Positions 45,157 to 64,000 are shown, counted from the stretch's first letter. The stretch is DNA of 64,000 bases from Gemmatimonadota bacterium (GCA_016209885.1 JACQVF010000115.1:31472-95471); one strand, 5' to 3'. Numbers and translations are program-made. The notes: generated from the sequence alone by a model not told the origin.

Positions 45157-45221
45157 GGGCGGTGCGGCATCGCGGGAGGAAGGGTCTCGGGAGGCGCCTA
45201 AACGCCCCTCCGCCCGTCACA

Positions 45222-45250
45222 TTGACAGCGCGGAGGCTGCCCCGTACATT
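45222..45250 (+). promoter_or_regulatory. Sigma70-like promoter TTGACA-17 nt-TACATT upstream of exbB
   Basis: Near-consensus hexamers with 17-nt spacer in the cdaA-exbB gap, followed by an AT-rich imperfect dyad around TTTACAGTTCTACCCGGTATACAT. Confidence 0.4.
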
Positions 45251-45376
45251 CTCGCGCATCTCGCCGGACGTGGATACCTTTTTACAGTTCTACCCGGTAT
45301 ACATGGGGGCCGGGTCAGCGCCGCATGCGGTACACCTGGGCTGGGCGGCGCGGTCGACGGTCGAAAGGAGACAGGC

Positions 45377-46054: not shown

Positions 46055-46139
46055 GCGGGACCGGGGTGGGCGAACCGGCCCGGAACCAGGGCGGAACGTC
46101 CTGAGTAGTATGTTAGGGATGAGTCAGGAGGATTTGGTC

Positions 46140-46565: not shown

Positions 46566-46567
46566 CC

Positions 46568-47864: not shown

Positions 47865-48560
47865 ATGTATCTCTCGAGGATCCGGGAAGCGCTGCCGAGG
47901 GTTCGCGACAACATCGCCCGTGCAGCCGTGCGCGCTGGTGGCCGTGAGGAGGACGTTACGATCGTCGCGGTCACGAAGGGACACCCCCGGGATGCGGTGG
48001 ACGCCGCGCTCGCTGTGGGACTCCGCGACATCGGCGAGAACCGGGTGCACGAGCTGGAGGCACGCGTGACGGCGGTGAGCCGTGAAGCGGCAATCTGGCA
48101 TATGATCGGGCACCTCCAGCGCAACAAGGTGCCGCGGGCCGTGGGCCTGTTCGACCTGCTCCACTCGCTCGATTCGCTTCGGCTGGCCGAGCGACTTTCC
48201 CGGGAGGCGGTGGAGCGGGACCTCACGCTCCGCGTGCTCGTACAGGTGAAGACGTCGGGCGAGGAGGCGAAGAGCGGCTTTTCGGCGCTGGAAGCGCCGG
48301 ACGCGTTGGGCCGGATGCTCGCGCTCCCGGGACTTCGGGTCTGCGGAGTCATGGCCATGGCACCCCTGACGCAGGACGAGCACGTACTTCGAAGCTCGTT
48401 TCGCCGTGCGCGGGAGATCTTCGAGCAGGCCCGCCACCAGGCGGGGTTCGAGCCCTGTCACCTGTCCATGGGGATGACGAACGATTATGAGATCGCCGTG
48501 GAGGAGGGTAGCACCATGGTGCGCCTCGGCACGGCGTTGCTCGGGGAGCGCGCGGGATGA
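47865..48560 (+). CDS. yggS: YggS-family pyridoxal-phosphate homeostasis protein
   Basis: VTKGHP PLP-Lys motif; ~231 aa. Confidence 0.85.
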   Translation: MYLSRIREALPRVRDNIARAAVRAGGREEDVTIVAVTKGHPRDAVDAALAVGLRDIGENRVHELEARVTAVSREAAIWHMIGHLQRNKVPRAVGLFDLLHSLDSLRLAERLSREAVERDLTLRVLVQVKTSGEEAKSGFSALEAPDALGRMLALPGLRVCGVMAMAPLTQDEHVLRSSFRRAREIFEQARHQAGFEPCHLSMGMTNDYEIAVEEGSTMVRLGTALLGERAG

Positions 48561-49369
48561 TCGATCTCACACCGCTGGATGTGCGCAAGAAGCGTGGCGA
48601 TTTCGGCCGCGCGTTTCGAGGATACACTCGGGAGGAAGTCGACGGCTACCTCGAACTTGTGGCCGAGCGGCTCGAGGAGCTCGTGCGCGATAACCTGACG
48701 CTGCGCGAGCGCGGGGAGCGGCTGGCGGAGCAGGTCGCGGCGTTCCAGGAGCGCGAACGCGCAGTGCAGGACGCCATCGTCACCGCCGAGAAGCTGAGAG
48801 ACGAGATCCGGACGCATGCGCTGCGGGAGGCCGAGCTCTTGCGCCGGGAGGCGGAGGCCGAGCTCGAGAGCGCACGCGCGGCAACCGAGCGGCTGGTGGC
48901 AGAGCGCCGTGCCGTGCTCGCGGATCTGGGACACAGGCGCATGCGCTTCCTTCACCAGTGGCGCGCGTTCCTTGAGCGGGAGATGGATGAGCTGGAGCTC
49001 GAGGAGGCGCGCATGCGCCTGGCCGGGGAGACGGCGCTCGAAGACATGGGGCGGCGGCCGGCGACGGCGCGTGGAGGTGAAGTCTCTGTGCCCCCGGACG
49101 GCGCCGCGCCGCCCGAGGTGGCGCCCGCGGGCACCCTCCCGGCGAGCGACTCCCCGGAGATGGCGGCGGCCCGTATGGCCTCGGGCACGGCGGAGGAGGA
49201 GGCCCGCCGTGAGGAGGCGGCTGAGACGGCTGCCGCGGCGCAGATCGTCCCGCGGTCGGGGCCGGAGGAGCGCGCCTCGGACGCGGCGGCGCAGGGGGAG
49301 GATGCGACGGAAGCGGGTGAACCGCTGTGGCTCTCCTCGATCTTGGACGAGGAGGAACAGCAGCGGTGA
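48557..49369 (+). CDS. DivIVA-domain cell-division protein
   Basis: N-terminal DivIVA motif (LTPLDVRKKRGDFGRAFRGY), long coiled coil, acidic tail. Confidence 0.7.
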   Translation: MIDLTPLDVRKKRGDFGRAFRGYTREEVDGYLELVAERLEELVRDNLTLRERGERLAEQVAAFQERERAVQDAIVTAEKLRDEIRTHALREAELLRREAEAELESARAATERLVAERRAVLADLGHRRMRFLHQWRAFLEREMDELELEEARMRLAGETALEDMGRRPATARGGEVSVPPDGAAPPEVAPAGTLPASDSPEMAAARMASGTAEEEARREEAAETAAAAQIVPRSGPEERASDAAAQGEDATEAGEPLWLSSILDEEEQQR

Positions 49370-50199
49370 GCGGGACGGCGGCCGCGTCGATGGCACGGCT
49401 GCGTGAAGCGGCGGACGCCGTACGGTCCCGGACCCCCCTCGTGCCGGAGCTCGCCATCATCCTGGGCACGGGCCTCGGGCGCCTGGCCGAGGACATCGAG
49501 GACGCGGTTTCCGTGCCGTACGAGGCCATCCCCCACTTCGCCCTCTCTACCGTGGAAACACACACGGGGCGTCTCATCCTGGGAGTCCTCGAAGGGAAGC
49601 GAGTCGCCGCCATGCAGGGCCGCTTCCACCGGTACGAGGGCTATGCGCTCGAGCAGGTGACGTTCCCGGTGCGGGTGATGAAGCTCCTGGGCGCGCGCGT
49701 GCTCATCGTGTCGAGCGCGTGCGGGGGAATGAATCCGTTGTGGTACCCGGGGGACCTGGTCCTCCTGGACGACCATATCAACCTTCTGGGCGACAATCCG
49801 CTCATCGGGCCGAACCTGGACGAGCTGGGGCCGCGCTTCCCCGACCTGTCAGAGCCGTACGACCGGGAGCTGCAGCGCCTCGCCCAGGAGGTGGCGCTCG
49901 AGCTGAAGATCCCGCTCCGCCGCGGTGTGTACGTGGCCGTCACGGGGCCGAACCTGGAGACGCGCGCCGAGTACCGGATGCTCCGGGCGCTGGGGGCGGA
50001 TGTCGTCGGAATGTCCACGGTTCCGGAAGTCATCGTGGCGCGACACATGGGAATGCGGACTGTCGGGATCAGCATCATCACGGACGCGTGCTTCCCCGAC
50101 GCCCTCGAGCCCGCGGACGTGGAGGAGATTATCCGCACGGCGATGAGCGCGGAGCCGAAGCTCACGGTGCTGATTCGGGGCGTAGTGCGCCGGATCTGA
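49366..50199 (+). CDS. punA: Purine nucleoside phosphorylase (PunA/PNP-I type)
   Basis: GTG overlaps the divIVA stop. PNP motifs (GTGLG, GRFHRYEGY, VGMSTVPEVIVARH). Confidence 0.85.
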   Translation: MSGTAAASMARLREAADAVRSRTPLVPELAIILGTGLGRLAEDIEDAVSVPYEAIPHFALSTVETHTGRLILGVLEGKRVAAMQGRFHRYEGYALEQVTFPVRVMKLLGARVLIVSSACGGMNPLWYPGDLVLLDDHINLLGDNPLIGPNLDELGPRFPDLSEPYDRELQRLAQEVALELKIPLRRGVYVAVTGPNLETRAEYRMLRALGADVVGMSTVPEVIVARHMGMRTVGISIITDACFPDALEPADVEEIIRTAMSAEPKLTVLIRGVVRRI

Positions 50200-50292
50200 T
50201 TGGTTTGGCGATTCGCGGTTCGCGCTCCGTGGTCTCGTGATCAAGCACCTCATGTGCGGTTGCGGGTCCGTCGCAGGGCAAGGAATGAACCC

Positions 50293-50326
50293 ATCGCGAA
50301 TCGCTGATCGCGAATCGCTGATCGCA
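50293..50326. repeat. 14-bp direct repeat ATCGCGAATCGCTG x2 plus a partial copy in the ileS leader
   Basis: Directly visible, 9-42 nt upstream of the ileS ATG. Confidence 0.6.
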
Positions 50327-50334
50327 CGAAACCC

Positions 50335-53300
50335 ATGGCCGAGCGTGTGAAACGATACCCGGAGCTGCCCGTCTCAAGGATCGCGCTGGAGGAGGGAATC
50401 CTTGAGCGCTGGCGCGCGGAGGACCTGTTCCGGCGATCCCTCGAGGCGACCGCCGGGGGCGAGCCGTTCGTCTTCTACGAGGGTCCGCCCACGGCGAACG
50501 GACGGCCCGGCCTCCATCACATCATCAGCCGGACGATCAAAGATCTGGTGTGCCGACAGCGCACGATGCTGGGCCGGAGCGTCACGCGCATCGCCGGGTG
50601 GGACACCCACGGGCTGCCGGTCGAGATCGAGGCCGAGAAAGAGCTGGGCATCTCTGGGAAGTTGGAGATCGAGAGCTACGGCGTCGCGCGGTTCAATCAG
50701 CTCTGCCGCGAGTCCGTCTTCCGGTACAAGGAGGATTGGGAGCGGCTCTCGGAGCGGATCGGCTACTGGCTAGATTACTCGCGTCCGTACGTCACGTTCT
50801 CGCGCGACTACATCGAGACCGTCTGGTGGGTGGTCGCCACGATCGCGAGGAAGGGGCTCCTCTATCGCGGGCACAAGATCGTGCCCTCCTGCCCGCGCTG
50901 CGGCACCGGGCTCTCCTCCCATGAGGTCGCCCAGGGCTACCAGGACGTGGCGGACCCTTCCCTCTACATCGAGCTTGAGCTGCTGGACGGGAGCGCCCGC
51001 AAGCTGCTGGTGTGGACGACCACACCGTGGACGCTGGTCTCGAACGTGGCGCTGGCGGTCAATCCCGCGCTCCCGTACGTGGAGCTCGAGCACCGGGGCC
51101 GGCGTCTCCTCGTGGCGGCCCGCCGTGTGGAGCCGCTGTTCGGCGAGGAAGCTGCGGTCGTGGAGCCCGTGGATTCCCGCACGCTCGTGGGGCGCCGCTA
51201 CCGCCGCCCTTTCGATCTGCTCCCGGACTCCGACGTCGGGGGCGACGCCGGGCGGATCGTCCCGGGGGCCTTCGTCTCCGATGAGGAGGGCTCCGGGATC
51301 GTCCACCTAGCACCAGCCTTCGGGGCCGACGACTACGCGGCCGGGCAGGAGTTCGGGCTGCCGGTGCTCATGCCGGTGGGCGATGACGGCCGCTTCCGGG
51401 AGGATCTCCCGCTCGTGGGCGGGCGGTTTGTGAAGGACGCCGACGAAGCGCTCATCGCGGATCTCAAGAGGCGCGGACTCGTGTTCCGCGCGGGCCGGGA
51501 GGTCCACAGCTACCCGCACTGCTGGCGCTGCGAGTCGCCGCTGCTCTACATGGCGCGGGACTCGTGGTTCGCGGCCACGTCGCGGATCAAGGAGATGATG
51601 CTGGCGAACAACGCGCAGGTGCGCTGGGTACCGCCCGAGGTCGGGGAGGGACGCTTCGGTGAATGGCTGGCGGGCAACGTGGACTGGGCGCTCAGCCGTG
51701 ACCGCTACTGGGGTACGCCGCTCCCGGTCTGGGTCTGCGAGGCGAATCCCGACCACGCGGAGTGGGTCGGGAGCTACGCGGAGCTGGAGCGCCACGTCGG
51801 CCCCCTTCCCACCGAGTTCGATCCCCACAAGCCGTGGATCGACGCGTTGACCTGGCCCTGCCCGGAATGCGGCGCCACTCTGCGGCGGGCGCCGGAAGTC
51901 ATCGACGTGTGGTTCGACTCCGGCTGCATGCCCTACGGCCAGTGGCACTACCCGTTCGCCAACCGCAGCGAGTGGCAGCGCCACTTCCCTGCGGACTTCA
52001 TCTGTGAGGGCGTAGACCAGACGCGCGGCTGGTTCTACTCGCTCATGGCGATCAGCTCGATGCTCGACCTGGGCCCTGCCTACCGCGCCGTAGTCGTGAA
52101 CGACCTCATTCTGGACGCGGAAGGCCAGAAGATGTCGAAGTCCCGCGGAAACGTGGTGGACCCCTGGGATGCCATCGCCGAGCACGGCGCGGATGCGATC
52201 CGCTGGTACCTGGTGACCGTGAGCCAGCCGTGGGTGCCGAAGCGCTACGATCCCCGCGGGATCCGCGAGTCCGCGCGCAAGCATTTCGACACGCTCCGGA
52301 ACACCTATCACTTCTTCGCCCTCTACGCGAACGTGGAGGGATGGGCGCCGTCGGTGGCCGATCCGGCGCCGGCCGAGCGCTCGCTCCTCGATCGCTGGCT
52401 CCTTTCGCGGCTCCACGGGCTTGTGGCCCAGGTGCGAGAGGACATGGAGAGCTACCAGATCACGCGGGCCGGCCGCGCGAGCGGAGACTTCGTGCTCGAA
52501 GATCTGTCGAACTGGTATGTGCGCCGCAGCCGCTCGCGTTTCTGGGGGAATACGGACGTGGCGGACAGCCGAGCGGCGTTCCGTACGCTGCACGAGGCGC
52601 TGGCGGCCGTGGCGCTGCTCACGGCGCCCATCACGCCGTTTGTGTCGGACTGGCTCTACCGTGCGCTTACGGCTGAGAGCGCGCACCTGGCCCGGTTCCC
52701 GGAGGCGGACCCGGCGCTGCGGGCGCCGGCGCTCGAGGCGCAGATGGATGCCGTCCGCCGCCTCGTCTCCCTGGGGCGCGCGGCGCGGGAGGCGGTGCAG
52801 ATCCGCGTGCGGCAGCCGCTGCGGCGCATGTATGCGGTCGTCCCGCACGGCCTCACGCTGGAGGGCGAGCTCCTGGGCCTGCTCCGCGACGAGCTGAACG
52901 TGAAGGAGATCGAGTTCCTGGGTACGGGGAAGGGGCTTGTTCGCATATACGCGCGGCCGAGCTACGCGGCGCTGGGACCCCGGTTCCAGGCCCGCACGGA
53001 AGCCGTGGCTCGAGCGATCCGCGGGCTCCCGGCAGAGCGCCTGGAGGCCATCCGGCGGGGCGAAGCCGCGGCCGTAGAGGTGAACGGCGCGGAAGTGGCC
53101 CTGGAAGCCGGCGACTTCGAGATCGTGGAGGAGGCGGAGGCCGGCCGCGTGGTGAAGAGCGAGGGCGGCTTCATCGTAGCGCTCGACCCCAGCGTGGACC
53201 GCGACCTGCGGGAGGAAGGGCTGGCCCGCGAGCTGGTGAACCGGATCCAGCGGTTGCGCCGCGACGCAGGCCTCGAGGTGACGGATCGGATCCGGCTCGC

Positions 53301-53517
53301 CATCGTCGGGCCGGATGAGCTCGTCACCGCGGCGAGCCGTTTCCGGGAGTTCATCGCCGGCGAGACGCTGGCCACCGAGGTCCGGGCCGTGACGGAGCGC
53401 GCCGCCGCCGCCGGCGGGCCCGATGGCCCCGATGGCTATGAGATCGTGCGTGCCGTGGACATGGACGGGCTCGAGGCGAAGATCGGCGTGAGCGTCCAGC
53501 CCCGGGTGACGCCGTGA
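50335..53517 (+). CDS. ileS: Isoleucine--tRNA ligase (type 2, ~1060 aa)
   Basis: HIGH (PTANGRPGLHH), KMSKS (KMSKSRGN), CP1 editing domain, Zn-binding C-terminal region. Confidence 0.95.
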   Translation: MAERVKRYPELPVSRIALEEGILERWRAEDLFRRSLEATAGGEPFVFYEGPPTANGRPGLHHIISRTIKDLVCRQRTMLGRSVTRIAGWDTHGLPVEIEAEKELGISGKLEIESYGVARFNQLCRESVFRYKEDWERLSERIGYWLDYSRPYVTFSRDYIETVWWVVATIARKGLLYRGHKIVPSCPRCGTGLSSHEVAQGYQDVADPSLYIELELLDGSARKLLVWTTTPWTLVSNVALAVNPALPYVELEHRGRRLLVAARRVEPLFGEEAAVVEPVDSRTLVGRRYRRPFDLLPDSDVGGDAGRIVPGAFVSDEEGSGIVHLAPAFGADDYAAGQEFGLPVLMPVGDDGRFREDLPLVGGRFVKDADEALIADLKRRGLVFRAGREVHSYPHCWRCESPLLYMARDSWFAATSRIKEMMLANNAQVRWVPPEVGEGRFGEWLAGNVDWALSRDRYWGTPLPVWVCEANPDHAEWVGSYAELERHVGPLPTEFDPHKPWIDALTWPCPECGATLRRAPEVIDVWFDSGCMPYGQWHYPFANRSEWQRHFPADFICEGVDQTRGWFYSLMAISSMLDLGPAYRAVVVNDLILDAEGQKMSKSRGNVVDPWDAIAEHGADAIRWYLVTVSQPWVPKRYDPRGIRESARKHFDTLRNTYHFFALYANVEGWAPSVADPAPAERSLLDRWLLSRLHGLVAQVREDMESYQITRAGRASGDFVLEDLSNWYVRRSRSRFWGNTDVADSRAAFRTLHEALAAVALLTAPITPFVSDWLYRALTAESAHLARFPEADPALRAPALEAQMDAVRRLVSLGRAAREAVQIRVRQPLRRMYAVVPHGLTLEGELLGLLRDELNVKEIEFLGTGKGLVRIYARPSYAALGPRFQARTEAVARAIRGLPAERLEAIRRGEAAAVEVNGAEVALEAGDFEIVEEAEAGRVVKSEGGFIVALDPSVDRDLREEGLARELVNRIQRLRRDAGLEVTDRIRLAIVGPDELVTAASRFREFIAGETLATEVRAVTERAAAAGGPDGPDGYEIVRAVDMDGLEAKIGVSVQPRVTP

Positions 53518-54089
53518 GGCGGCGGGCCCCAGGTCACCAGCGGCACAGCATGAGAGCGGAGGGGAGGGGGCTGGTGCTCGGCAGGACCGGGGCCAAGGGC
53601 ATTTCTCTGGCACGCCTCCGCATGCTCGCGGCGGTTGTGACCGGCGTCGTCGTCGTGGACCTGATCACGAAGTTCGTCGTCCAGCGTACCTTTTACCCTG
53701 GGCACTCCATCCGCGTGATCGGCGACTTCTTCCGGCTCACGTACATCATGAACCCCGGCGCCGCGTTCGGCATCCATTTCGGCGAGTACTCGCGCCCTGT
53801 GTTCCTCGTGCTGGCGATTCTGGCCCTCTTAGTCCTGGGAGCCATGTACCTGGCAACGCCGGCGACCGACCGCTTGCGCCTCTACGCCATCGCCTCCATC
53901 TGCGGCGGCGCGCTCGGCAACCTCATTGACCGCATCCGCTCTCCGCGCGGCGTGGTGGATTTCCTCGACTTCGGCCTCGGCGATCTGCGCTGGCCGATCT
54001 TCAACGCCGCCGACATCGCGGTGACCATAGGCGCCGTGCTCCTGGCCGTCTCGCTTTGGTTCGAGGAGCGCGAGCATGCCGGAGGGTGA
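53514..54089 (+). CDS. lspA: Lipoprotein signal peptidase II
   Basis: Classical ileS-lspA linkage. Four TM helices, motifs FNAADIAV and GNLIDR. Confidence 0.85.
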   Translation: MRRRAPGHQRHSMRAEGRGLVLGRTGAKGISLARLRMLAAVVTGVVVVDLITKFVVQRTFYPGHSIRVIGDFFRLTYIMNPGAAFGIHFGEYSRPVFLVLAILALLVLGAMYLATPATDRLRLYAIASICGGALGNLIDRIRSPRGVVDFLDFGLGDLRWPIFNAADIAVTIGAVLLAVSLWFEEREHAGG

Positions 54090-55047
54090 GGGCCGCACGG
54101 AGAATCTGGAGGTCCGGGAGACCGCGCCCGAGCGGCTCGACGTCTACCTGGCCCGCCACCTCTCCCTCTCCCGCAGCCGCGCCGCCGCGCTGATCGAGGA
54201 GGGATGCGTCACCGTGGACGGGCGCACGCCACGTAAGTCGGACGTCGTGCAGCCGGGGCAACGCATCACCGTGGCGATCCCGTCGCCCCAACCTGCCACG
54301 GCCACCGCGGAGCCGATCCCGCTGGACATCCGCTACGAGGACGAGGCGCTCCTGGTCGTGAACAAGCCCACCGGTATGGTCGTCCACCCGGCACCGGGCC
54401 ACCTGACGGGCACCCTCGTCAACGCCCTCCTCCACGCCGTCAGCGACCTGTCGGGGATCGGCGGCGTGCTCCGGCCCGGCATCGTGCATCGCCTCGACCG
54501 CGATACCTCGGGGCTCATTCTCGTCGCGAAGACGGAACACGCGCAGCGGAAGCTGAGCGATGCCTTCAAGCACCGGCAGATCCGACGGCGCTACGTCACC
54601 ATGACCTGGGGGCACCTGCCCCAGCAGTCACTCACAGTCGATGCGCCCATCGGCCGCCACCCCAAGGACCGCAAGCGGATGGCAGTCGTGCCCCTCGGGC
54701 GCCGAGCGGTGACCCGGCTGCGCGTCCGCGAAAGCTGGCTGGCCGCCGAGCTCCTGGAGGTCAGGCTCGAGACCGGACGCACCCACCAGATTCGCGTGCA
54801 CCTCGCCCACATCGGCCACCCTGTAGTCGGCGACCGCGTCTACGGCGCCGGCTGGGAGCGAGGAATGAGCGGGCCCGGCCATCGCTGGGCACTCGAGCTC
54901 GCCAGCCGCATCCCGCGGCAGTTCTTGCACGCGTGGGAACTCGTGTTTCCACACCCCACCACCGGACTCGAGGTCCGCTGCCGCGCGCCGCTTGCCCATG
55001 ACCTGATCCCCGCGCTCGAATGGGCGCGAAGCCACGCGGCGTCGTGA
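54076..55047 (+). CDS. rluD: 23S rRNA pseudouridine synthase, RluA/RluD family
   Basis: S4 domain, catalytic HRLDRDTSGL motif. Confidence 0.85.
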   Translation: MPEGEGRTENLEVRETAPERLDVYLARHLSLSRSRAAALIEEGCVTVDGRTPRKSDVVQPGQRITVAIPSPQPATATAEPIPLDIRYEDEALLVVNKPTGMVVHPAPGHLTGTLVNALLHAVSDLSGIGGVLRPGIVHRLDRDTSGLILVAKTEHAQRKLSDAFKHRQIRRRYVTMTWGHLPQQSLTVDAPIGRHPKDRKRMAVVPLGRRAVTRLRVRESWLAAELLEVRLETGRTHQIRVHLAHIGHPVVGDRVYGAGWERGMSGPGHRWALELASRIPRQFLHAWELVFPHPTTGLEVRCRAPLAHDLIPALEWARSHAAS

Positions 55048-55070: not shown

Positions 55071-55164
55071 TGCCGCCGGCGCCGCGCGCCGTAGACGTGC
55101 TACGGCGGCGGATTCGGAAAACTTTCTCGACCGCCCGGAGTTGCGTAGCTTACACTTAACAAGA

Positions 55165-55647
55165 ATGCCCGAGTCCGTGGGTTACGCCGACATCGGCCTG
55201 GCCGCGCCCTCCGGCGCTTCGAAGCATCTCCTCCTGCGGGCAGGGGATCGCTTCTTCGCCGTCCCGATTCTTGAGGTCAGGGAGGTTCTGCCGCGCCAGG
55301 ACTACGTGCGCCTGCCCGGGGCGGGACCGGCGGTTTGCGGGCTTATAAGCGTGCGGAGCCGCGTGCTCACGGTGCTCGACTTCGCGGCCGCGGTGGGTTT
55401 AGGGCGGAGCAGCGCCGGGGCCGATCACCGAGTGGTCGTGCTGGAGCACGGGGAGCGGAGTGTCGGGCTGGCGGTCGACGCCGTGGTCGAGATTGCCGAA
55501 CTCGTGCCGGAAGCGTTAAGCGCGTCCGGGGAGAAGCCAGTCGAGGGGGATCCGGAGGCGCCCTATCTGGTGGCGGTCGGCGAAGCGGCGGGGTTCCGCT
55601 TCGCGGTGATCGGCGTGTCGGAGCTTGTGGCCGCCTGGCTCGCGTGA
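55165..55647 (+). CDS. cheW: Chemotaxis coupling protein CheW
   Basis: CheW fold pattern (FAVPILEVREVL, VVVLEHGERSVGLAVDAVVEI). Confidence 0.8.
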   Translation: MPESVGYADIGLAAPSGASKHLLLRAGDRFFAVPILEVREVLPRQDYVRLPGAGPAVCGLISVRSRVLTVLDFAAAVGLGRSSAGADHRVVVLEHGERSVGLAVDAVVEIAELVPEALSASGEKPVEGDPEAPYLVAVGEAAGFRFAVIGVSELVAAWLA

Positions 55648-55719
55648 CGCGCGGCGTCCGCAACGGAAGCAACCAAAGCAACGGAAGCAGCGAAGCAAAG
55701 TGAACGTGGTGGAGGGACG

Positions 55720-56082
55720 ATGGCGCACACTGTGTTGATCTGCGACGATGCGCTCTTCATGCGCACCATGATCGCCAACATTTTGAAGGAAGCGGGGTTC
55801 GAGGTGGTGGGCGAGGCAGCGACGGGCTCGGAGGCGATCGACAGGTACCGGCAGCTCATGCCCGACCTCGTGACCATGGACATCGTGATGCCGGACATGG
55901 GCGGGATCGACGCGGTGCGGGCGATCATGAAGGAGTTCCCGCATGCCCGCATCCTCATGTGCAGCGCCATGGGACAGCAGGCCCTGGTGATGGAAGCCAT
56001 CCAGGCGGGTGCCCGCGACTTCGTCGTGAAGCCGTTCCAGCCTTCTCGCGTGCTGGAGGCGGTACAGCGCGTGTTGAAGTAG
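55720..56082 (+). CDS. cheY: CheY-like single-domain response regulator
   Basis: Acidic pocket DD (LICDDALFMR), phospho-accepting Asp (TMDIVMPDMGG), conserved T and K (CSAMG...KPF). Confidence 0.85.
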   Translation: MAHTVLICDDALFMRTMIANILKEAGFEVVGEAATGSEAIDRYRQLMPDLVTMDIVMPDMGGIDAVRAIMKEFPHARILMCSAMGQQALVMEAIQAGARDFVVKPFQPSRVLEAVQRVLK

Positions 56083-56268
56083 CCAGCGGGTGAGTGGGTG
56101 ACCAGTTGTTCGCGATTAGTGAATCAGTGAATCAGCCGTTGACGATCAGCAATCGGTAGTCGGTGCCTGGCGATGGTCGGGTGAACCCTCGCCCCGAGGT
56201 GTCGCGAGCAATCGCTGAGGACTGACGGCCGATCGCCAGGCGCGGGGGCGCCGTAAGGCTGGAGAGCC

Positions 56269-58170
56269 ATGGAGCTCGAGCGGTACGCCGAGTTGTTCTT
56301 CGCCGAGAGCCGGGAGCACCTATCGGCCATGAGCCAGCTCATTCTCGAGCTGGAGGCGCGGCCGGGCGATCTCGAGGCCGTGCACGGCCTGTTTCGCGCT
56401 GTCCATACGATCAAGGGGATGGCGGCGTCGATGGGCTACGGTGCGGTGAGCGCGCTGGCGCACGAAGTCGAGAACCTGCTCGACGCGCTGCGCTCCGGTC
56501 GGCGGCGCGCAGAGCCCGCGTTGGTGGACGTGCTGCTCGAGGGTGCCGACGCCCTGGAGCTCGCCGTGGCGCATGTGGCCGGAGAGCGCCCGGAGCCGTA
56601 CGACCCTGGGCCGTACCTGGCGCGGCTGCGGGCGTTCGTGGGCGGCGGTGCGGCGGCGGGTGCCGCGGCTCGGCGCCGGGATACGGGGCCGCCGGCAGTG
56701 CCGGGGCTGTGGGCGCGGGTCCAGCTCGCGGAAGACGCGCCGCTCAAGGGCGCGCGGGCGTTTCTGGTGGTGCGCGCCGCGGAAGAGACGGGGCGGCTCG
56801 CCGAATGCCATCCGCCCGTCGCGTCGTTCCAGGAGCCGGAGTTCGACGGGTGGTTCTTCCTACGTTTCGATCCTGCCATAGACCGGCAGGCGACCCGCGC
56901 ATTGCTGACGCGGATGGGAGACGGAGCGGCGGTGGACTTCGTGGAGGTGGCGGAGGAGACGGTGGCCATGGAGGGCGAGGCGGCGTCTCAGGCCCGTACG
57001 CACCGGCCGCGCCCGAACTCTCTGCGCGTGGACATCTCTCGGCTCGATGCGCTTCAGGACCAGATCGGCGAGCTTGTGGTGCTGCGCAGTTCGCTGCGCC
57101 GCGCGGCGCGGGAACACCCCACGGGCGAGTTGCTCCAGCTGAGCGCCAGGGCCTACCGCCTCATCAGCGCACTGCAGGACGAGATCATGAAGGCGCGCAT
57201 GGTCCCGGTGTGGCAGGTGTTCGATCGCTTCCCGCGGCTGGTCCGGGACGCGGGGCGCACCCTGGGCAAGGAGGTCGAGTTCATCGTGGAGGGCCAGGAG
57301 ATCGGGCTCGACCGTTCCGTGCTGGACGAGATTGTGGACCCCCTCGTCCATCTGCTGCGAAACGCCGTGGACCACGGGATCGAGAGCCCGGAGGAGCGCG
57401 AGGGGCTGGGGAAGCCGAGGATCGGGCGCATCGTTCTGTCGGCGGCGAGGGAGGGCGCCAGTGTCGTGATCACGGTCCAGGATGACGGCAGGGGGATCGC
57501 TCGCGCGCGCGTCATCGCGAAAGCGCTTGGGGCCGGGCTCATCAGCGAGGCGGAGTCAGGGACCCTGGAGGATGAGGACATCATCCGCCTTGTTCTCCGC
57601 ACCGGCTTCTCCACAGCCGAGCGCATCACCGGGATCTCGGGGCGCGGCGTCGGCATGGACGTGGTGGCGAACAAGGTGCGGGCGCTCGGCGGCAACTTCG
57701 AGATTCGGAGCGTCGAGGGGAAAGGAACGCGCATTGCGATCCGGCTGCCGCTGACCCTGGCCATCTCGAGGGTCCTGCTCGTGCGGGTGGCCGGCGAGGT
57801 CTATGCGATCCCCCGGATGCTGGTGCGCGAAACGTTGGAGGTCGGGCGGGACGCCTGGTCCCGGGCCGACGGCTCGGAGCTGCTGATCGGGGTGGGCGAG
57901 AAGCCGGTTGCGGTCCTGCGTCTGCGCCGGATCCTGGAATGCCCGGCGCGGCCGGAGCCCGCGCGCGCCGTGGCCGCCGTCACGGACCTGGGAGACAGCC
58001 GCGTGGCGTTCTTGGTGGATGAGGTCGTGGAGGAACAGGAGATCGTCGTGAAGTCGTTCGAGCCGACGAAAGAGACGCCGCCGTTCTTCTCCGGTGCCAC
58101 GATCCTGGCCGATGGCCGGCCGACGTTGATCCTGGATCCGGCGGGCCTCGTGGCGGCCGCCTCGCCCTGA
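56269..58170 (+). CDS. cheA: Chemotaxis histidine kinase CheA
   Basis: P1 HPt (HTIKGMAASMG), dimerisation region, HATPase boxes (HLLRNAVDHGIE, DDGRGI, GISGRGVGMDVV), C-terminal CheW-like domain. Confidence 0.9.
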   Translation: MELERYAELFFAESREHLSAMSQLILELEARPGDLEAVHGLFRAVHTIKGMAASMGYGAVSALAHEVENLLDALRSGRRRAEPALVDVLLEGADALELAVAHVAGERPEPYDPGPYLARLRAFVGGGAAAGAAARRRDTGPPAVPGLWARVQLAEDAPLKGARAFLVVRAAEETGRLAECHPPVASFQEPEFDGWFFLRFDPAIDRQATRALLTRMGDGAAVDFVEVAEETVAMEGEAASQARTHRPRPNSLRVDISRLDALQDQIGELVVLRSSLRRAAREHPTGELLQLSARAYRLISALQDEIMKARMVPVWQVFDRFPRLVRDAGRTLGKEVEFIVEGQEIGLDRSVLDEIVDPLVHLLRNAVDHGIESPEEREGLGKPRIGRIVLSAAREGASVVITVQDDGRGIARARVIAKALGAGLISEAESGTLEDEDIIRLVLRTGFSTAERITGISGRGVGMDVVANKVRALGGNFEIRSVEGKGTRIAIRLPLTLAISRVLLVRVAGEVYAIPRMLVRETLEVGRDAWSRADGSELLIGVGEKPVAVLRLRRILECPARPEPARAVAAVTDLGDSRVAFLVDEVVEEQEIVVKSFEPTKETPPFFSGATILADGRPTLILDPAGLVAAASP

Positions 58171-58202
58171 AGGGTGCGAGAACCGAAAGAGAGTGGAGCG
58201 GT

Positions 58203-58820
58203 ATGGGACAGAGCCGGGAGTTGAAGGCGCTGGAGCTGGACGCGCTGCGCGAGGTGGCGAACATCGGGGCGGGACACGCGGCGACAGCGTTGTCGCAACT
58301 GACGCGGCGCCGTGTGATGATCAACGTGCCCGAGATCCGCCTCGGTCCGTTCCAGGACATCCCGGGGCTCGTCGATGCCGGCGAGGTGACGGTGGCGGTG
58401 GTGATGAAGGTGTTCGGCGACCTCACCGGCCGGGTGCTCCTGGCGTTCGGCCGCGGCACGGTCATGAGGCTCGTGGACTGCTTCATGGGACTGGAGCCCG
58501 GCAGGACGCAGACCCTCGCGGAGATGGAGCAGTCGGCGATCAAGGAGGCGGGCAACATCCTCGGGGGCGCCTATCTGAATGCGCTCTCCGAGTTCCTTGG
58601 AATGATCCTCCTGCCGTCTGTGCCGGCGCTCACCCTGGATCTGGCCAGCGCGGTCACCGCGCCCGGAGAGTTCGATGTGCCGGACGGCAACCGGCTCGTG
58701 TTCTGCATCGAGAACCTGTTCCAGGTCAACGCGAGCCAGGGGAACCTCAGGGGCCAGTTTCTCTTTCTCCCGGATGAGCCGGCAGTGCAGGCGATCCTTC
58801 AGGCGATTCGCGTCGGGTGA
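58203..58820 (+). CDS. cheC: CheC-family CheY-P phosphatase
   Basis: Two CheC repeats carrying the E-x3-N-x22-P signature (LDALREVANIGAG, EQSAIKEAGNILGG). Confidence 0.75.
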   Translation: MGQSRELKALELDALREVANIGAGHAATALSQLTRRRVMINVPEIRLGPFQDIPGLVDAGEVTVAVVMKVFGDLTGRVLLAFGRGTVMRLVDCFMGLEPGRTQTLAEMEQSAIKEAGNILGGAYLNALSEFLGMILLPSVPALTLDLASAVTAPGEFDVPDGNRLVFCIENLFQVNASQGNLRGQFLFLPDEPAVQAILQAIRVG

Positions 58821-61567
58821 GTGAGCAGCTGACTGAGCGGCCCAGGGGCGGGGGCGCCCCGCACTCCGAGCGCGACCTCGAGATCTTGCGCGGGCTCGCG
58901 CGGCGCATCGATCCGGGCGATTCCGGCGCCCACAACAACCTCGGGGTCCTCTACTTCAACAAGAGCCTCTACGCCGAGGCGATTGCCGAGTTCGAGAGCG
59001 CTCTCGAGATCGACCCGCGCATGCAGGTGGCGCGCAGGAACCTCGAGATCGCCTACTTCCACACGGGCTACTACCGGCAGATCATCGCGCGGCTGGAGGC
59101 ACGGCTCGCCCAGGACCCCGACGACGTCCAGGCCCGCCGCCGCCTCGCCCAGGTCCACCTGCGCACAGGAGACGCGAACCGTGCCGCTACGGAGTTCGCT
59201 CGTATCCTCGAGCGGAAGCCGGACGACCTCGAGACGCTGCTCCTTCTGGGAGAGGCGGAGCGCGAGCGCGGGGACTTGGACGCGGCGCTACGCTGCTTCG
59301 AGCGCGCACGCGAGTTCGATCGCGACAGTGCGGTCATCCACTTCTACATCGGCGAGCTGCTCTACAACCGCGGGCTCAGCCGCGATGCCCTTGCCGCGCT
59401 CGAGCGCGCGCTCGAGCTGAATCCCGAGCTCGCGGACGCCCACTACCTCATCGGCTTCGTCCACGGCGACCTCGGCGAGCACGAGAAGGGCATGGAGGCG
59501 ACTCGCCGGGCCGCTGAGCTGAACCCGAACCTGGCTCGCGCCGAGGCGGCCCTTTCGCTGGACCGCTACAGTGCGGCCCGTTACCGCGAGCTCGTGGGCG
59601 AGCAGAAGAAGGCACCGGAGGTCGACCGTTCGCGGCCGTTCGCCCACTACAACCTGGGGCTCGCCTTCCGCCAGCGCGGCCTCTACGACGAGGCCCTACG
59701 CGAGTTCGAGTTCGCGGCTGGGCACGGCGAGGACCCGGAGCTCGTACGGCAGGCGGTGGCAGAGACGTACCTGTTGCAAGGGAAGAGCCGCGAGGCGAGC
59801 GAGCTGTACCGCGGCCTCGTGGCGGAGCTAGGCGACAGCCCGAAGCTGTGGAACGAGTTGGGGATCGCCCTGCAACAGCTTGGCCAGACGGGCGAGGCGG
59901 AGCGGTGCTATCAGCAGGCGCTGAACCTCGATTCTGGTTACGCGCTGGCGCTCAACAATCTGGGCGTTGCCCGGGTCCACGCCGGCGATCTGGCGGGCGC
60001 GCAACAGGCCTTCCGGCGGTCCGTCGAGCAGAGCCCAGGGGTCCCCGAGCCGCACCTCAACCTGGCGCTGCTCCACCTGCGGGCGCGTCGCTACATCGAG
60101 GCGCTGGAGAGCTACCGCCACGCGCTGGACGCCGCACGCGCTGCGGACGCCGCGTGGAACGGGGTGGGCATGGTGCTCATGGACTTGGGGCGGTTCGAGG
60201 AGGCGAGGAACGCGTTCGCGCGCGCCGTCGAGGCGAACCCGGAGCTCGCCGCCGCGCGGTACAATCTGTCGTTCGCGCTCTCCCATCTGGGCGATCACGA
60301 GGGGGCGCTGCGGGAGACGAAGACCGCCCTGGGGCTTTCCCCGCGCTACGAGACGCCTCGTTTCCGGCTCACTATCGATGTGCAGTTCGAGCACGGCGAT
60401 GTCCTGGCGCCGGAGCTCGACCGCGGGGTCGACGTGCACGAGGAGGGCGTGGACGCCTTCGACTTCGACAGTACGCAACTCGATTCCGTGTTCGCGCAGT
60501 TCCGCACGGTCGAGCAAGTGCGGCGCGCGAAGCCGGTGGGCGAGCGCGGCGATCCCCTGGCCCTCGCGCGCGACTACTTCACGAAGGGCCTCCTGGAGCG
60601 CGCGACCGCCGAGGTGCGTCGGGTCGTCGCGGCGGGCGCGGACCCCGTGGAATCCGCGCTCCTCTTGGGCGAGATCTTTCTGGCCCAGGGGCTCGCGGGC
60701 GAGGCGCTCGAGCGGTTCGAGGCGGCGCTCGCGCGTCTGGACGGGAGAGACGACGATACGCGGGCGCGCGGGGCGTACCACGGCCGGGCGCGGGCGCTCC
60801 TGGCCCTCGGCCGCCTGGGGGAGGCGCACGCCGCCGTCCACGACATCCTCCGGGGGGAGCCTCGCACCGAGGAGCTCATGACGGCGAGCGAGATTCTGTC
60901 TCGTGCCGGAGCGGTGGCCGAGGCACTGGCGGCGCTGGCTCGCGCCCAGCGGTTGGAGCCGAAGAACCCCGCGGTGCTGCGGCAGCTTGGCCGCGTGGCC
61001 AACGGTGCGGGCGAGTTTCAGGCGGCCGAACGCGCGTTGCGCAAGGCGCTCGCGGAGGATCCCGGACACCCGGGGGCGCACCTGGACCTGGGCCGCGCGC
61101 TGGGTGGGCTGGGTCGGTTCGAGGAAGCCGTGCGCGAGTGTACCGCCGCTGTGGAGCTGCTTCCCACGTTCTCGGAGGCGGTGCTCGAGCTGGCGGATCT
61201 ACACCTTCGTTGCGCACGGCCGATCCAGGCTATTGGCGTGCTGGCGGACCTCCTGGAGTTGGATCCCTACGATCTGCCTGCGCTTGTGCGGCTCGGCGAG
61301 ATCCTGCTGGACGCCGGTCGCGCAGCGGACGGGGAGCGGGCGTTCCGCCGGGTCCTGCGCTTCGACGCCCGGCGGGTCACCGCGCTCTTCGGGCTCGGCA
61401 ACACCCTTGCCGCCCAGAAGCGGTTTCGCGAGGGACTGGATCTGTGGAAGTCGGTGGTGGAGCTGGAGCCGGACGGCGAGCTCGCGCTCCACGCCCGCGA
61501 GCGCATGGAGGCCGCGCTCGAGCTGAGCCGCGTCTTCGGGTTGGGTGGCGTCGCGGGGGCGACCTAG
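58817..61567 (+). CDS. Large tetratricopeptide-repeat (TPR) protein
   Basis: GTG start overlapping the cheC stop. More than 15 TPR units (AHNNLGVLYF, AEAIAEFESALEIDP ...); 916 aa. Confidence 0.7.
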   Translation: MSEQLTERPRGGGAPHSERDLEILRGLARRIDPGDSGAHNNLGVLYFNKSLYAEAIAEFESALEIDPRMQVARRNLEIAYFHTGYYRQIIARLEARLAQDPDDVQARRRLAQVHLRTGDANRAATEFARILERKPDDLETLLLLGEAERERGDLDAALRCFERAREFDRDSAVIHFYIGELLYNRGLSRDALAALERALELNPELADAHYLIGFVHGDLGEHEKGMEATRRAAELNPNLARAEAALSLDRYSAARYRELVGEQKKAPEVDRSRPFAHYNLGLAFRQRGLYDEALREFEFAAGHGEDPELVRQAVAETYLLQGKSREASELYRGLVAELGDSPKLWNELGIALQQLGQTGEAERCYQQALNLDSGYALALNNLGVARVHAGDLAGAQQAFRRSVEQSPGVPEPHLNLALLHLRARRYIEALESYRHALDAARAADAAWNGVGMVLMDLGRFEEARNAFARAVEANPELAAARYNLSFALSHLGDHEGALRETKTALGLSPRYETPRFRLTIDVQFEHGDVLAPELDRGVDVHEEGVDAFDFDSTQLDSVFAQFRTVEQVRRAKPVGERGDPLALARDYFTKGLLERATAEVRRVVAAGADPVESALLLGEIFLAQGLAGEALERFEAALARLDGRDDDTRARGAYHGRARALLALGRLGEAHAAVHDILRGEPRTEELMTASEILSRAGAVAEALAALARAQRLEPKNPAVLRQLGRVANGAGEFQAAERALRKALAEDPGHPGAHLDLGRALGGLGRFEEAVRECTAAVELLPTFSEAVLELADLHLRCARPIQAIGVLADLLELDPYDLPALVRLGEILLDAGRAADGERAFRRVLRFDARRVTALFGLGNTLAAQKRFREGLDLWKSVVELEPDGELALHARERMEAALELSRVFGLGGVAGAT

Positions 61568-61589
61568 GAGTCGTAGGGGATGAGCGGAT

Positions 61590-62765
61590 GTGCGCGCCTC
61601 GGGAGACAAGACGGTGGCGATCGAAGGGCCGCTCTCAGAGCTGAGCGTCCACGACGTCTTCCAGCTCCTTGACCTGTCCCGCAAGACCGGGATCTTGACG
61701 CTCACCTCGAACCGGGCGGGCGAGTCGGGGGTCGTCCACTTCGATCGCGGGCAGGTCATCGGCGCATCGAAGAAGGGCGAGGATGCCACCCCGCGCGTCG
61801 GCAATATCCTGCTGAGGGCGGGGAAAGTCACGGAAGGCGAGCTCCGGCGCGCCCGGGAAATCCAGCTCGAGCAGCCGGACCGTAGGTTCGGCGAGATCCT
61901 TGTCGAGATGGGAAGCATTCGGCCGGAGGACCTCAGGGAGGCCCTGCGCTTCCAGATCGAGGAGACCGTGCACGCCCTCCTCAAGTGGGAGGAAGGCTAC
62001 TTCTCCTTCGTCGAGCTGGAGGACAGCCCGGACCCGGGCCGTCTCGTCCGCATCCGCGCCGAGTCGCTCCTCATGGAGTCGGCGCGCCGGGTCGACGAGT
62101 GGACGACGATCGCCCAGAAGGTGCCCGACGCCCGGGTGATCCCGGCGCTGGCGCCGCTGGATGAGAGTCGTGGTGCACCGGTCGTCGATTTGCGGCCCGA
62201 GGAATGGGAGGTGCTGGCCGAGATCGACGGCCGGCGCAACCTGACGGAGATCGCTACGACCCTGGGCGTCAGCGAGTTCGACGTAGCGAAAACGGTGTTC
62301 GGGCTGGTGACCACCGGCATCGTCGAGGTCGTGGACGCACCCAGCCGGGGGGAGGTCTCTCGGGCCGGGCACGAGCTCACGCTGACGGAGGCGCATCGCC
62401 TGCTGGAAGATGGACAAGCGGCGCGCGCTCGGGTCCTCTTGGACGAGCTCGAGCGCGACGCCCCCCAGGTGCCGCAGGTCTTCCTTCTTTCCGGGCGCGT
62501 CTACATGGCGCAGCGTCGCTATCGTGCGGCCCTGGAGGCGTTCAGCCGTGCCGTGGAGCTCGACCCGCTCTCGGCCCAGGCGCAGCGTTGCCTCGGCTTC
62601 GCGGCAGTTCACGCGGGGGACCTCGATCGCGCTATCGAGGCGTGGATGAACTGCCTGCGTCTATCGGGCAGTGCGGCCACGGCGGATGCGCGAGTCGCGC
62701 GCGTGTTGGCGGCCGCCCGCGTCCTTCAGGTGGAGCTGGCACGGGAGGAGCAGGTCCTCACATGA
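61590..62765 (+). CDS. DUF4388 (PATAN-like) domain protein with C-terminal TPRs
   Basis: N-terminal LSELSVHDVFQLLDLSRKTGILTL block typical of DUF4388/PATAN, central GEILVEMG-type region, C-terminal TPR-like helices. Confidence 0.55.
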   Translation: MRASGDKTVAIEGPLSELSVHDVFQLLDLSRKTGILTLTSNRAGESGVVHFDRGQVIGASKKGEDATPRVGNILLRAGKVTEGELRRAREIQLEQPDRRFGEILVEMGSIRPEDLREALRFQIEETVHALLKWEEGYFSFVELEDSPDPGRLVRIRAESLLMESARRVDEWTTIAQKVPDARVIPALAPLDESRGAPVVDLRPEEWEVLAEIDGRRNLTEIATTLGVSEFDVAKTVFGLVTTGIVEVVDAPSRGEVSRAGHELTLTEAHRLLEDGQAARARVLLDELERDAPQVPQVFLLSGRVYMAQRRYRAALEAFSRAVELDPLSAQAQRCLGFAAVHAGDLDRAIEAWMNCLRLSGSAATADARVARVLAAARVLQVELAREEQVLT

Positions 62766-63724
62766 AGCAGCCATCGGCCGACGATCTTCGGCGCTGGAGC
62801 GAGGAGTTCGCGCGCAACCCCGATACCCTCGCCTTCATTCCGCTCGCCGAGGCGTATCGGCGCCAGGGGCGGCAGGATGATGCGCTGCGGATCTGCCTCC
62901 GCGGCCTGGAGCGCCACCCTTCGAATGTCGAGGCGCACGCGGTGCTCGCGCGCATCTATCTGGCGCGGAGCGACAAGGACAAGGCGTTCGACGAGTGGCT
63001 GCTCATCAGCAAGCTCGATCCCGAGCATTTCGAGACGCGGCGCGGACTGGGGTTCGGCTACCTGGAGCGCGGGAACATGGAGCAGGCGGTGTGGCACCTG
63101 ACGAAGGCCGCCGAGCTCCGCCCCGACGATGAGACGGTGCGGGAAGCGCTTGCCTTCGCCCGACAGCAGCTCGAGTCCGCAGGGGCCTCTGAGGCCCAGG
63201 CCACCGAAGCAGCGGCCCACCGCGCTGCAGGTGCGGCGGGGACGCGCACCGAGGCCGAGCGGACGCCGGTCGGGGGGGCGCGGCCCGCGACGTCGAGCGG
63301 GCCGGCCGGCGGGAGCGCCGAACCCATCGCCCCTACGGGCTCCAGCGCGGCGGCGCTGTCACCCGACCGGCTGTTCGCCGGACTCCTGGCATCGCCGGTC
63401 CTCCTGGGGATCGTGCTCCTGGACGCAGACGGACTTCTCCTGGCCGGCGGCATGCGGGACGTGGGTCCGGATGGCGCAGAAGCGGTGGCATCCGTTCTGA
63501 GCGGCACCATCGACGAGGCCACGCGCACGGTCGAGCACTTGGGCCTCGGCGCGTGGGAGGGGATCCTCCTGGAGACCGAGGAAGCGAAGGCGTATCTCCA
63601 ACCGGTGGGCGACGCGCTGCTCCTGGTGGCTGGCCAGGCGCGGGCACCCGCCGGCTGGCTCAAGCGCGTGGCCGGCGAGGCGCGGGAGGTGGCTGCAGCG
63701 TTTCTCGGAGGAGGGAACGGCTGA
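62762..63724 (+). CDS. TPR plus Roadblock/LC7 (MglB-like) domain protein
   Basis: ATG overlaps the upstream stop. N-terminal TPRs, low-complexity linker, C-terminal Roadblock pattern (GIVLLDADGLLLAGG ... GILLETEEAKAYLQPVGDALLLV). Confidence 0.6.
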   Translation: MKQPSADDLRRWSEEFARNPDTLAFIPLAEAYRRQGRQDDALRICLRGLERHPSNVEAHAVLARIYLARSDKDKAFDEWLLISKLDPEHFETRRGLGFGYLERGNMEQAVWHLTKAAELRPDDETVREALAFARQQLESAGASEAQATEAAAHRAAGAAGTRTEAERTPVGGARPATSSGPAGGSAEPIAPTGSSAAALSPDRLFAGLLASPVLLGIVLLDADGLLLAGGMRDVGPDGAEAVASVLSGTIDEATRTVEHLGLGAWEGILLETEEAKAYLQPVGDALLLVAGQARAPAGWLKRVAGEAREVAAAFLGGGNG

Positions 63725-63726
63725 AC

Positions 63727-64000
63727 GTGGATCTCCGGGAAGCGATGGGCCGCTTGAATGGCATTCCGGGGGTGCAGGGTGCCATCATTGTGGACGGGGA
63801 GGACGGGATCCCCGTGGAAGCGGACGTCATGGAGCACATCCGGGCGCCCGTGGTGGCGGCCCTCGCGGCCCAGCTCTTCCGGCGCGCCGCGCGCTCGGCC
63901 CAGGCCGCACAGTTCCACGAGCTGCGGTCGCTCCAGCTCGAGGCCGAGCTCGGAAACGTGTTCGTCGCAGCCGCGGGCCCGCTGCTGGTGGTTGTGGTCT
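63727..64000 (+). CDS. Roadblock/LC7 (MglB-like) domain protein, 3' end cut by window edge
   Basis: GTG start. LNGIPGVQGAIIVDGEDGIPV ... Roadblock signature; frame open to the end of the window. Confidence 0.5.
   Translation, partial: MDLREAMGRLNGIPGVQGAIIVDGEDGIPVEADVMEHIRAPVVAALAAQLFRRAARSAQAAQFHELRSLQLEAELGNVFVAAAGPLLVVVV

Follow-up and report, generated by a model that had tools for sequence, protein, structure and literature searches.

What does a chemotaxis (che) operon control when its genes run into genes for tetratricopeptide repeat (TPR), PATAN, and Roadblock proteins? This question is raised by a locus at positions 55,165 to 64,000 of a 64,000-nucleotide stretch of DNA from a Gemmatimonadota bacterium (GCA_016209885.1 JACQVF010000115.1:31472-95471; the whole stretch is hereafter called the window), in which cheW, cheY, cheA, and cheC are followed by four genes of these types. 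An initial annotation had supposed that a CheA-CheY relay is wired here to a polarity switch of the MglA/MglB type. The genomic context of orthologous loci supported the joint encoding of the two, and we infer that the Che and MglAB parts are functionally coupled, which we regard as likely. Gene content, gene order, tight packing, conservation across the phylum, and MglA/MglB orthology were observed. As judged from the orthologous loci, the window holds the 5′ half of a single long operon of ~17 genes and ~17 kb that is conserved throughout Gemmatimonadota. We propose, with a probability of roughly 0.55, that this operon would place an MglA/MglB polarity switch directing type IV pili under chemosensory control.

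The polarity genes were identified from DNA that extends past the window. Logan contig L001, which derives from the same organism, was 99.95% identical to window positions 58200-64000 and reached 415 nucleotides (nt) further. In this contig, the short Roadblock/LC7 gene that the window end cuts was found to encode 113 amino acids (aa) at full length and to end ~68 nt past the window (L001 5546-5887). The next gene (L001 5884-6234), overlapping it by 4 nt, was an MglB orthologue; the encoded fragment matched PF03259 at 7e-11 and was 88% identical to the MglB of L085. In L085, the closest relative with downstream DNA, MglB was followed by an MglA that was 59% identical to Myxococcus xanthus MglA over its full length, and MglA in related loci showed 59-65% identity to the Myxococcus protein. 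Loci L002 and L004 are more distant; there, the GTPase matched MglA structures (6h17 at 4e-80 over the full length for L002), and the adjoining upstream Roadblock protein best matched MglB structures. The latter protein of L002 (164 aa) matched 6h5b at 5e-8 and 3t1r at 2e-7, both over the full length, and scored 39.5 bits with the NCBIfam MglB model, under the cut-off of 200. The MglA P-loop GxxxxGKT, the switch I arginine (TDRTLFFDFLP), the TVPGQ motif with the catalytic Gln, and the NKxD motif were conserved in 72 orthologues. On these sequence matches, the cluster GTPase of the orthologous loci is assigned to Group 1 MglA, and the Roadblock gene directly upstream of mglA is assigned as MglB, for which a GTPase-activating protein (GAP) role is predicted. 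An mglA-like gene had been expected just past the window end. Among the species-level loci whose DNA continued for at least 2 kb beyond the TPR-Roadblock gene, mglA was indeed located two genes after the window's last gene in 66 of 67, so that the expectation was borne out in relatives, and the next gene in the source organism was MglB.

Conservation of the arrangement was analyzed by using a TPR-Roadblock alignment to scan genomes, each species being represented once, and by compiling a tblastn synteny table over 80 loci. With 19 proteins of L002 as tblastn queries, the order was lspA-rluD, cheW-cheY-cheA-cheC, TPR900, PATAN-TPR, TPR-Roadblock, Roadblock, mglB, and mglA, followed by a gene for a tandem DnaA-like AAA+ protein, a second PATAN-TPR gene, cheR-cheD-cheB, an often present double cheW, and a Peptidase_MA_2 gene. 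The che genes enclose, between cheC and cheR, a polarity block of eight genes. As shown by this order, the annotated absence of methyl-accepting chemotaxis proteins (MCPs), CheR, CheB, and flagellar genes was true of the window, whereas cheR, cheD, and cheB lay downstream in orthologous loci; CheR and CheB are missing from the window because its end cuts the operon. All 76 genomic loci belonged to Gemmatimonadota (Longimicrobiales, Gemmatimonadales, and Gemmatimonadaceae, including a Gemmatimonas sp. with the full cluster, L027), and many came from soil collections of metagenome-assembled genomes (MAGs). cheW was found at the orthologous position in 42 loci, and the long TPR protein (916 aa in the window; TPR916) was conserved in 78. 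Because the order was conserved in 76 species-level genomes, the arrangement is not due to chance.

The genes were also tightly packed. In the window, cheC and the TPR916 gene overlapped by 4 nt, the PATAN-TPR and TPR-Roadblock genes likewise by 4 nt, and the TPR-Roadblock and short Roadblock genes were separated by 2 nt. The median intergenic distance across orthologous loci was −1 nt from cheC to the TPR gene and −14 nt from the second PATAN gene to cheR. This packing bears on the possibility that the che operon and an mglBA/PATAN operon are functionally independent and merely adjacent. The modules were separately lost in three loci (L021, L023, and L052, described below), and mglA is unlinked to its partners in M. 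xanthus and Bdellovibrio, as independence would allow. Nevertheless, the block is inserted within the che operon and not beside it, start and stop codons overlapped at both che/block junctions in most loci, and the order was maintained across Longimicrobiales and Gemmatimonadales at just 35-45% protein identity. Mere adjacency is the weakest of the alternatives, and a very improbable one, because the block is enclosed by che genes, and codons overlap at each of its two borders.

Next, the class of the Che core was considered. CheA showed the canonical P1-P2-P3-P4-P5 architecture without a fused receiver, and matched the CheA structures 6s1k (9e-94) and 1b3q (5.5e-90); its top NCBIfam model was the haloarchaeal CheA_Halo, at 434 bits and under the cut-off of that model. 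CheY was the best-conserved protein of the cluster (median identity 80%). Its best solved relative in a PDB search was Thermotoga maritima CheY (1tmy, 1.6e-47), followed by archaeal CheY, and its phospho-acceptor pocket was complete, with the DD, D54, S82, and K104 columns at least 95% conserved. In CheC, a predicted phosphatase of phosphorylated CheY (CheY-P), both D/SxxxExxN motifs were readable (DALREVAN and SAIKEAGN). As read from the conserved motifs, the catalytic residues are intact in CheY, CheC, and MglA. The features of F1-type systems, namely a CheA with P1-P5 (P2 included), a CheY of one domain, and the full set of CheC, CheD, CheR, and CheB, were all found. Judged from architecture and nearest matches, the Che core is a Thermotoga/Bacillus/archaeal (F1-like) gene set. 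The annotated resemblance to Frz/Dif-like alternative systems was not upheld: the core resembles the Thermotoga/Bacillus/archaeal type and includes CheC, CheD, and a P2 domain in CheA. A Frz-like or Pil-Chp-like class was likewise rejected on architecture, that is, CheA without a receiver, CheY as a single domain, and no MCP in the cluster. In orthologous loci, moreover, the flanking 10 kb to each side contained no MCP gene.

Such a core could belong to an ordinary flagellar chemotaxis operon, in which CheY-P binds the flagellar switch and the MglA/MglB block helps to select the flagellar pole or to assemble the flagellum, or constitutes a parallel second output. The likeness of CheY, CheA, CheC, and CheD to the Thermotoga/Bacillus/archaeal flagellar-type core favors this explanation; cultured Gemmatimonas species bear a single polar flagellum, and a member of that genus (L027) has the full cluster. 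However, the cluster is present in dozens of soil MAG species, whereas flagellar genes were reported in only 1-2 soil Gemmatimonadota MAGs (PMC10581226). The same study found type IV pilus genes in Gemmatimonadota of all environments except marine ones. A gene table in the supplement of PMC9862903 allowed the two kinds of che genes to be compared in Gemmatimonas phototrophica, a cultured species with flagella. Those rows of the table that we used place, at NZ_CP011454 1873383-1886675, cheW, a response regulator gene, a DUF4388 gene with a GTPase gene directly after it, and cheB; a stretch of 5.4 kb before the DUF4388 gene and one of 4 kb before cheB fall outside those rows. A separate mglB-mglA pair is listed at 1536477-1537655. 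In the same rows, a further CheA gene, RS15835, is located at ~3.74 Mb, outside the MglA-linked cluster, and this is the CheA for which co-induction with fli genes is reported, whereas three genes of the MglA-linked che cluster at 1.87-1.89 Mb (RS07755, RS07760, and RS07805) show only small expression changes in their rows. The polarity block also persists without che genes in L021. A flagellar role of the operon is unlikely on this evidence. MglA-dependent pilus polarity is the likeliest output, because most soil members are without flagella yet possess type IV pili, and because the fli-co-induced CheA of G. phototrophica is separate; for type IV pili themselves as the output, we see about an even chance.

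The proteins that would connect CheY with the GTPase were then compared with known families. Hidden Markov model searches confirmed the annotated Roadblock, PATAN/DUF4388, and TPR domains above their cut-offs. TPR916 is proposed to be a scaffold or an MglA effector. The PATAN domain of the window protein scored 109.4 bits with PF14332 (cut-off 25) over profile positions 1-121 of 122. In the Pfam search, the C-terminal part of this protein was TPR, with no receiver domain, and it is not a PatA-type response regulator. The PATAN domain also contained an MshEN-like motif (NF053729, 42.2 bits versus a cut-off of 38, E 5e-11), with the sequence RVGNILLRAGKVTEGELRRAREIQ-LEQPDR-RFGEILVEMGSIRPEDLREALRFQ. 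The reference motif consists of two tandem 24-residue units, RLGxx(L/V/I)(L/V/I)xxG(L/V/I)(L/V/I)xxxxLxxxLxxQ (PMC5013675), from which 22 constraints were scored. The window motif agreed with 19 of the 22, compared with 17 or fewer in control proteins; R, G, G, L, and Q were kept in both halves, two hydrophobic positions were replaced, and the linker had 6 residues. Among relatives, the motif of the first PATAN protein was partly degenerate, reaching at least 19 of 22 in 40 of 77 loci, the window included. That of the second PATAN-TPR protein reached 21-22 of 22 in 53 of 61 loci (L002 14314-14475, residues 57-110) and, like the window motif, exceeded the NF053729 cut-off. The MshEN-like motif in the PATAN domains is a candidate binding site for cyclic di-GMP (c-di-GMP), which may be a second input to the system.

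Both Roadblock genes in the window scored above the PF03259 cut-off of 23 (41.0 and 39.0 bits). The TPR-Roadblock family comprised more than 1,600 clusters and included named members from Gemmatimonadota. In a PDB profile search, the short Roadblock protein had short Roadblock proteins (7yh1_D, 1e-14) and dynein LC7 as top matches, and matched MglB only at 1e-4. The three Roadblock families of the cluster were homologous yet distinct (hhalign 2e-13, 5e-11, and 5e-7). The two window genes had been annotated as MglB-like; this assignment was rejected, since MglB is encoded by the third Roadblock gene, past the window.

The cluster genes in the window are listed in Table 1. The gene calls and Pfam agreed with the annotation of eight plus-strand genes with tight starts in this place, and the Pfam scores of all eight were well over the curated cut-offs. 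For the PATAN-TPR gene, an alternative GTG start at 61590 would give 391 aa. The PATAN-TPR, TPR-Roadblock, and short Roadblock proteins exactly matched NCBI entries MBI4541389.1, MBI4541390.1, and MBI4541391.1 of a Gemmatimonadetes MAG, and the NCBI contig that carries them (97,740 bp) runs past the window end.

Table 1. Features of the che/polarity cluster in the window; positions are counted from the first nucleotide of the window.
Feature	Position	Strand	Description
cheW	55165-55647	+	160 aa, first gene of the cluster; PF01584 4.8e-25; ATG at 55165
cheY	55720-56082	+	120 aa, lone receiver; PF00072 9.2e-30
cheA	56269-58170	+	633 aa; Pfam Hpt, P2, H-kinase_dim, HATPase_c, CheW
cheC	58203-58820	+	205 aa; PF04509 6.3e-23 at two sites, plus CheX
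TPR protein	58817-61567	+	916 aa, all-TPR; many TPR families, e.g. TPR_2 1.9e-74
PATAN (DUF4388/PatA_N) + TPR	61614-62765	+	383 aa; PF14332 1.5e-31 plus TPR
MshEN-like tandem motif in PATAN domain	61794-61955	+	NCBIfam NF053729
TPR + Roadblock/LC7 fusion	62762-63724	+	320 aa; PF03259 1.6e-10 plus TPR families
Short Roadblock/LC7	63727 to beyond 64000	+	PF03259 6.8e-10; gene cut by the window end

The region has a G+C content of ~70%, and an unbroken run of plus-strand genes extends from 48.5 kb to the window end. Scans for terminators and promoters gave nothing over chance level, and no Rfam match was found in the che/polarity region. The rluD-cheW spacer (117 nt) contained a GC-rich hairpin without a T run at 55086-55108 (CGCCGTAG-ACGTG-CTACGGCG), possibly a boundary between transcripts or a site of processing. 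The cheY-cheA spacer (56083-56268) was 186 nt long in the window compared with a median of 19 nt in relatives, and carried two copies of the direct repeat AGTGAATC, again without an Rfam match.

The protein encoded directly after mglA was unexpected. It has ~600 aa and consists of two DnaA domain III AAA+ modules, and Pfam detected no other part of DnaA. The gene (L002 12310-14103) occupied the same position in ~70 loci. The N-terminal module matched DnaA structures at 7e-58, and well-conserved Walker motifs were present in this first module only, the second being poorly conserved. A possible explanation is that the block governs the polarity of growth, budding, or division, with MglA/MglB and the DnaA-derived AAA+ protein marking the pole and the Che proteins providing input for an alternative cellular function. 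Conservation of the tandem DnaA-domain-III ATPase directly after mglA would fit such a role, divIVA is found 6 kb upstream with the same orientation, and Gemmatimonas aurantiaca is reported to divide by budding. However, the order from divIVA to ileS-lspA-rluD is a generic housekeeping order that is also found in Bacillus; therefore, no functional link follows from the proximity of divIVA. In addition, wherever MglA, MglB, or PATAN has been characterized before, the role was in motility or in the polarity of pili, the AAA+ gene is missing from L052, and the complete receptor adaptation set (CheR, CheB, and CheD) suggests gradient sensing. We consider a role in the polarity of growth, budding, or division quite unlikely.

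Upstream of the che cluster, window positions 48557-55047 carried divIVA, a purine nucleoside phosphorylase gene, ileS, lspA, and rluD, and the ileS-lspA-rluD order was kept phylum-wide. A homologue labelled 'Candidatus Cloacimonetes' at NCBI (L081 and L082, Logan contigs with P0014) showed the complete Gemmatimonadota synteny, including ileS-lspA-rluD; given this synteny, the label is probably a binning error. The remainder of the window encoded housekeeping proteins (DnaG, RecJ, a GAF-SpoIIE phosphatase, KsgA, thiolase, SHMT, enolase, ArgJ, TilS, FtsH, and FolP), together with an ExbB-ExbD-ExbD-TonB set, YggS, DivIVA, purine nucleoside phosphorylase, IleRS, LspA, and RluD. At 44335-47727, a diadenylate cyclase-like protein (CdaA-like, recognized by eye only) was followed by ExbB, two ExbD proteins, and a TonB C-terminal protein. 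The ExbB-ExbD-ExbD genes (45-47 kb) were considered as an AglRQS-like gliding motor and rejected, since the TonB C-terminal protein that follows makes them an ordinary TonB energizing set. The sole Rfam match in the window was one tRNA (32821-32893).

For chemosensory control of MglA/MglB polarity, we propose the following mechanism. Receptors encoded elsewhere would control CheA, which would phosphorylate CheY; CheC would reset CheY, and CheR, CheB, and CheD would adapt the receptors. CheY-P would act on co-encoded adaptors, of which the PATAN-TPR proteins are the likeliest targets, given that PatA-type regulators of cyanobacteria join a PATAN to a receiver domain in one protein. Via a Roadblock platform formed by TPR-Roadblock, short Roadblock, and MglB, the site of MglB GAP activity would shift, and MglA-GTP would change pole. 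MglA-GTP, with the TPR and PATAN proteins, would then place or activate the type IV pilus motor (PilB/PilC), and c-di-GMP may gate the PATAN proteins through the MshEN-like motif. The result would be chemosensory steering of the twitching direction in mostly non-flagellated soil bacteria. Precedents are known for several of these steps. In Synechocystis, the direction of pilus-driven movement is set by PATAN, which binds PilB1/PilC. In M. xanthus, MglA-GTP recruits the TPR protein SgmX, activating pili, and the Frz pathway switches MglA/MglB polarity. MglA/MglB genes often adjoin PATAN genes (PMC4316618). A fuller version is tentative and, in our view, rather doubtful. In this version, the operon would be a self-contained module in which CheY-P and c-di-GMP converge on the PATAN-TPR adaptors and the three-Roadblock platform, flip MglA from pole to pole, and steer type IV pili to give non-flagellated soil Gemmatimonadota true chemotactic twitching, and the DnaA-derived tandem AAA+ ATPase would be a new kind of MglA partner.

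Several observations weigh against chemosensory control of pilus polarity. The Che core resembles a flagellar (F1-type) system, and the closest CheY, that of T. maritima, binds the flagellar switch. Pilus genes were found neither in the cluster nor in the 64-kb window, which likewise showed no receptor (MCP) or flagellar genes. TPR916 was considered as an orthologue of SgmX and rejected, since it scored 38 bits with NCBIfam NF052243 versus a cut-off of 1800, which reflects generic TPR similarity. The proposed mechanism leaves the DnaA-like ATPase, a surprising companion of a motility GTPase, unaccounted for. Natural variants also depart from the full set. In L021 (VEPF01000051), che genes are missing altogether and the eight-gene block stands between rluD and the peptidase gene; L023 (CAWFKH010000003) lacks mglA and cheD, and L052 (DATHVO010000076) lacks the AAA+ and second PATAN genes. 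Similarly, within the rows of the G. phototrophica table that we used, the cluster of cultured Gemmatimonas is without the three Roadblock genes that are found in the lineage of the window and in 76 other species. Finally, the source organism's own mglA was recovered neither by a search with the closest MglA nor in three further Logan contigs from other samples; the contig data of the search table describe cluster representatives only, so this failed recovery is no evidence of absence.

Nowhere in the literature that we searched were che genes described as joined to mglBA, whether for Gemmatimonadota or for other groups. The components, the idea of Che-to-MglA signaling, and the MglA-PATAN neighborhood, catalogued without che genes, were already known; the single conserved operon, its F1-type core, the TPR-Roadblock fusion, and the DnaA-like partner are new. 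Chemosensory control of MglA/MglB is known only from Myxococcus, where the genes are scattered and the link came from genetics, and the Gemmatimonadota operon may be a second, independent example. If the proposal is true, this would be the first whole chain from a receptor kinase to a Ras-like polarity GTPase written in one operon, and it would name candidate proteins that link CheY to MglB/MglA. The operon thus offers a set of candidates for connecting CheY with a Ras-like GTPase and points to PATAN proteins as possible c-di-GMP receptors. It also suggests how non-flagellated soil bacteria of an abundant and little-studied phylum might move directionally, and the reduced version in cultured Gemmatimonas makes experiments conceivable.

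Compared with known systems, the operon shares P2 CheA, CheW, CheY, CheC, CheD, CheR, and CheB with the F1 flagellar systems of Thermotoga and Bacillus. It differs from them in that no flagellar genes lie nearby, an eight-gene block is inserted, and the cluster occurs in lineages reported to be free of flagella. The actinobacterial conservon (CvnA-D) likewise combines a histidine kinase, a Roadblock/MglB homologue, and an MglA-family GTPase in one operon. In contrast, its kinase is a membrane sensor and not CheA, its GTPase belongs to Group 2, and it has no Che adaptation proteins, TPR, or PATAN; the CvnA membrane kinase and DUF742 (CvnC) were not found in the cluster, either in the window or in orthologous loci. 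The MglA-TPR (Bd2492)-RomR hub of Bdellovibrio, with CdgA, reportedly resembles the present system in having MglA and a TPR protein at the pilus-bearing pole and a link to c-di-GMP, and is said to differ in having no Che pathway or MglB and in its genes not forming one operon. Compared with that hub, c-di-GMP binding is only predicted for the PATAN proteins, from the MshEN-like motif. The cyanobacterial Tax/Pix systems with PatA-type regulators similarly encode PATAN in a che-like operon; here, however, the fusion partner of PATAN is TPR, CheY supplies the receiver from a gene of its own, and the cluster also has MglA/MglB and Roadblock genes.

Within the same phylum, Wuichet and Sogaard-Andersen (Table S2) listed two Group 1 MglA genes of G. 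aurantiaca, GAU_1409 as 'PATAN>MglA>-PATAN>' and GAU_1115 as 'MglB>MglA>'. They recorded only PATAN and MglB neighbors, with no che genes mentioned. The GAU_1409 order, PATAN-MglA-x-PATAN, corresponds to the core of the polarity block in the same MglA group, and the two entries agree with the two G. phototrophica loci (DUF4388-GTPase and the mglB-mglA pair). The Myxococcus Frz-MglA/MglB/RomR system also pairs a CheA-CheY type pathway with a Group 1 MglA and the Roadblock GAP MglB, uses a TPR protein (SgmX) as MglA effector for type IV pili, and includes an extra Roadblock paralogue, MglC, in the module. Unlike Frz, the Gemmatimonadota cluster lacks FrzE (a CheA-receiver fusion), FrzZ (a dual-receiver protein), and an in-cluster FrzCD receptor, and instead has P2 CheA, a single CheY, CheC, and CheD. 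Unlike in Myxococcus, no RomR, RomX, or RomY was seen in the cluster, and TPR916 is not an SgmX orthologue. PATAN-TPR proteins, the TPR-Roadblock fusion, and the DnaA-like AAA+ ATPase are additions relative to Myxococcus. Furthermore, whereas the Myxococcus genes are unlinked, those of Gemmatimonadota form one operon.

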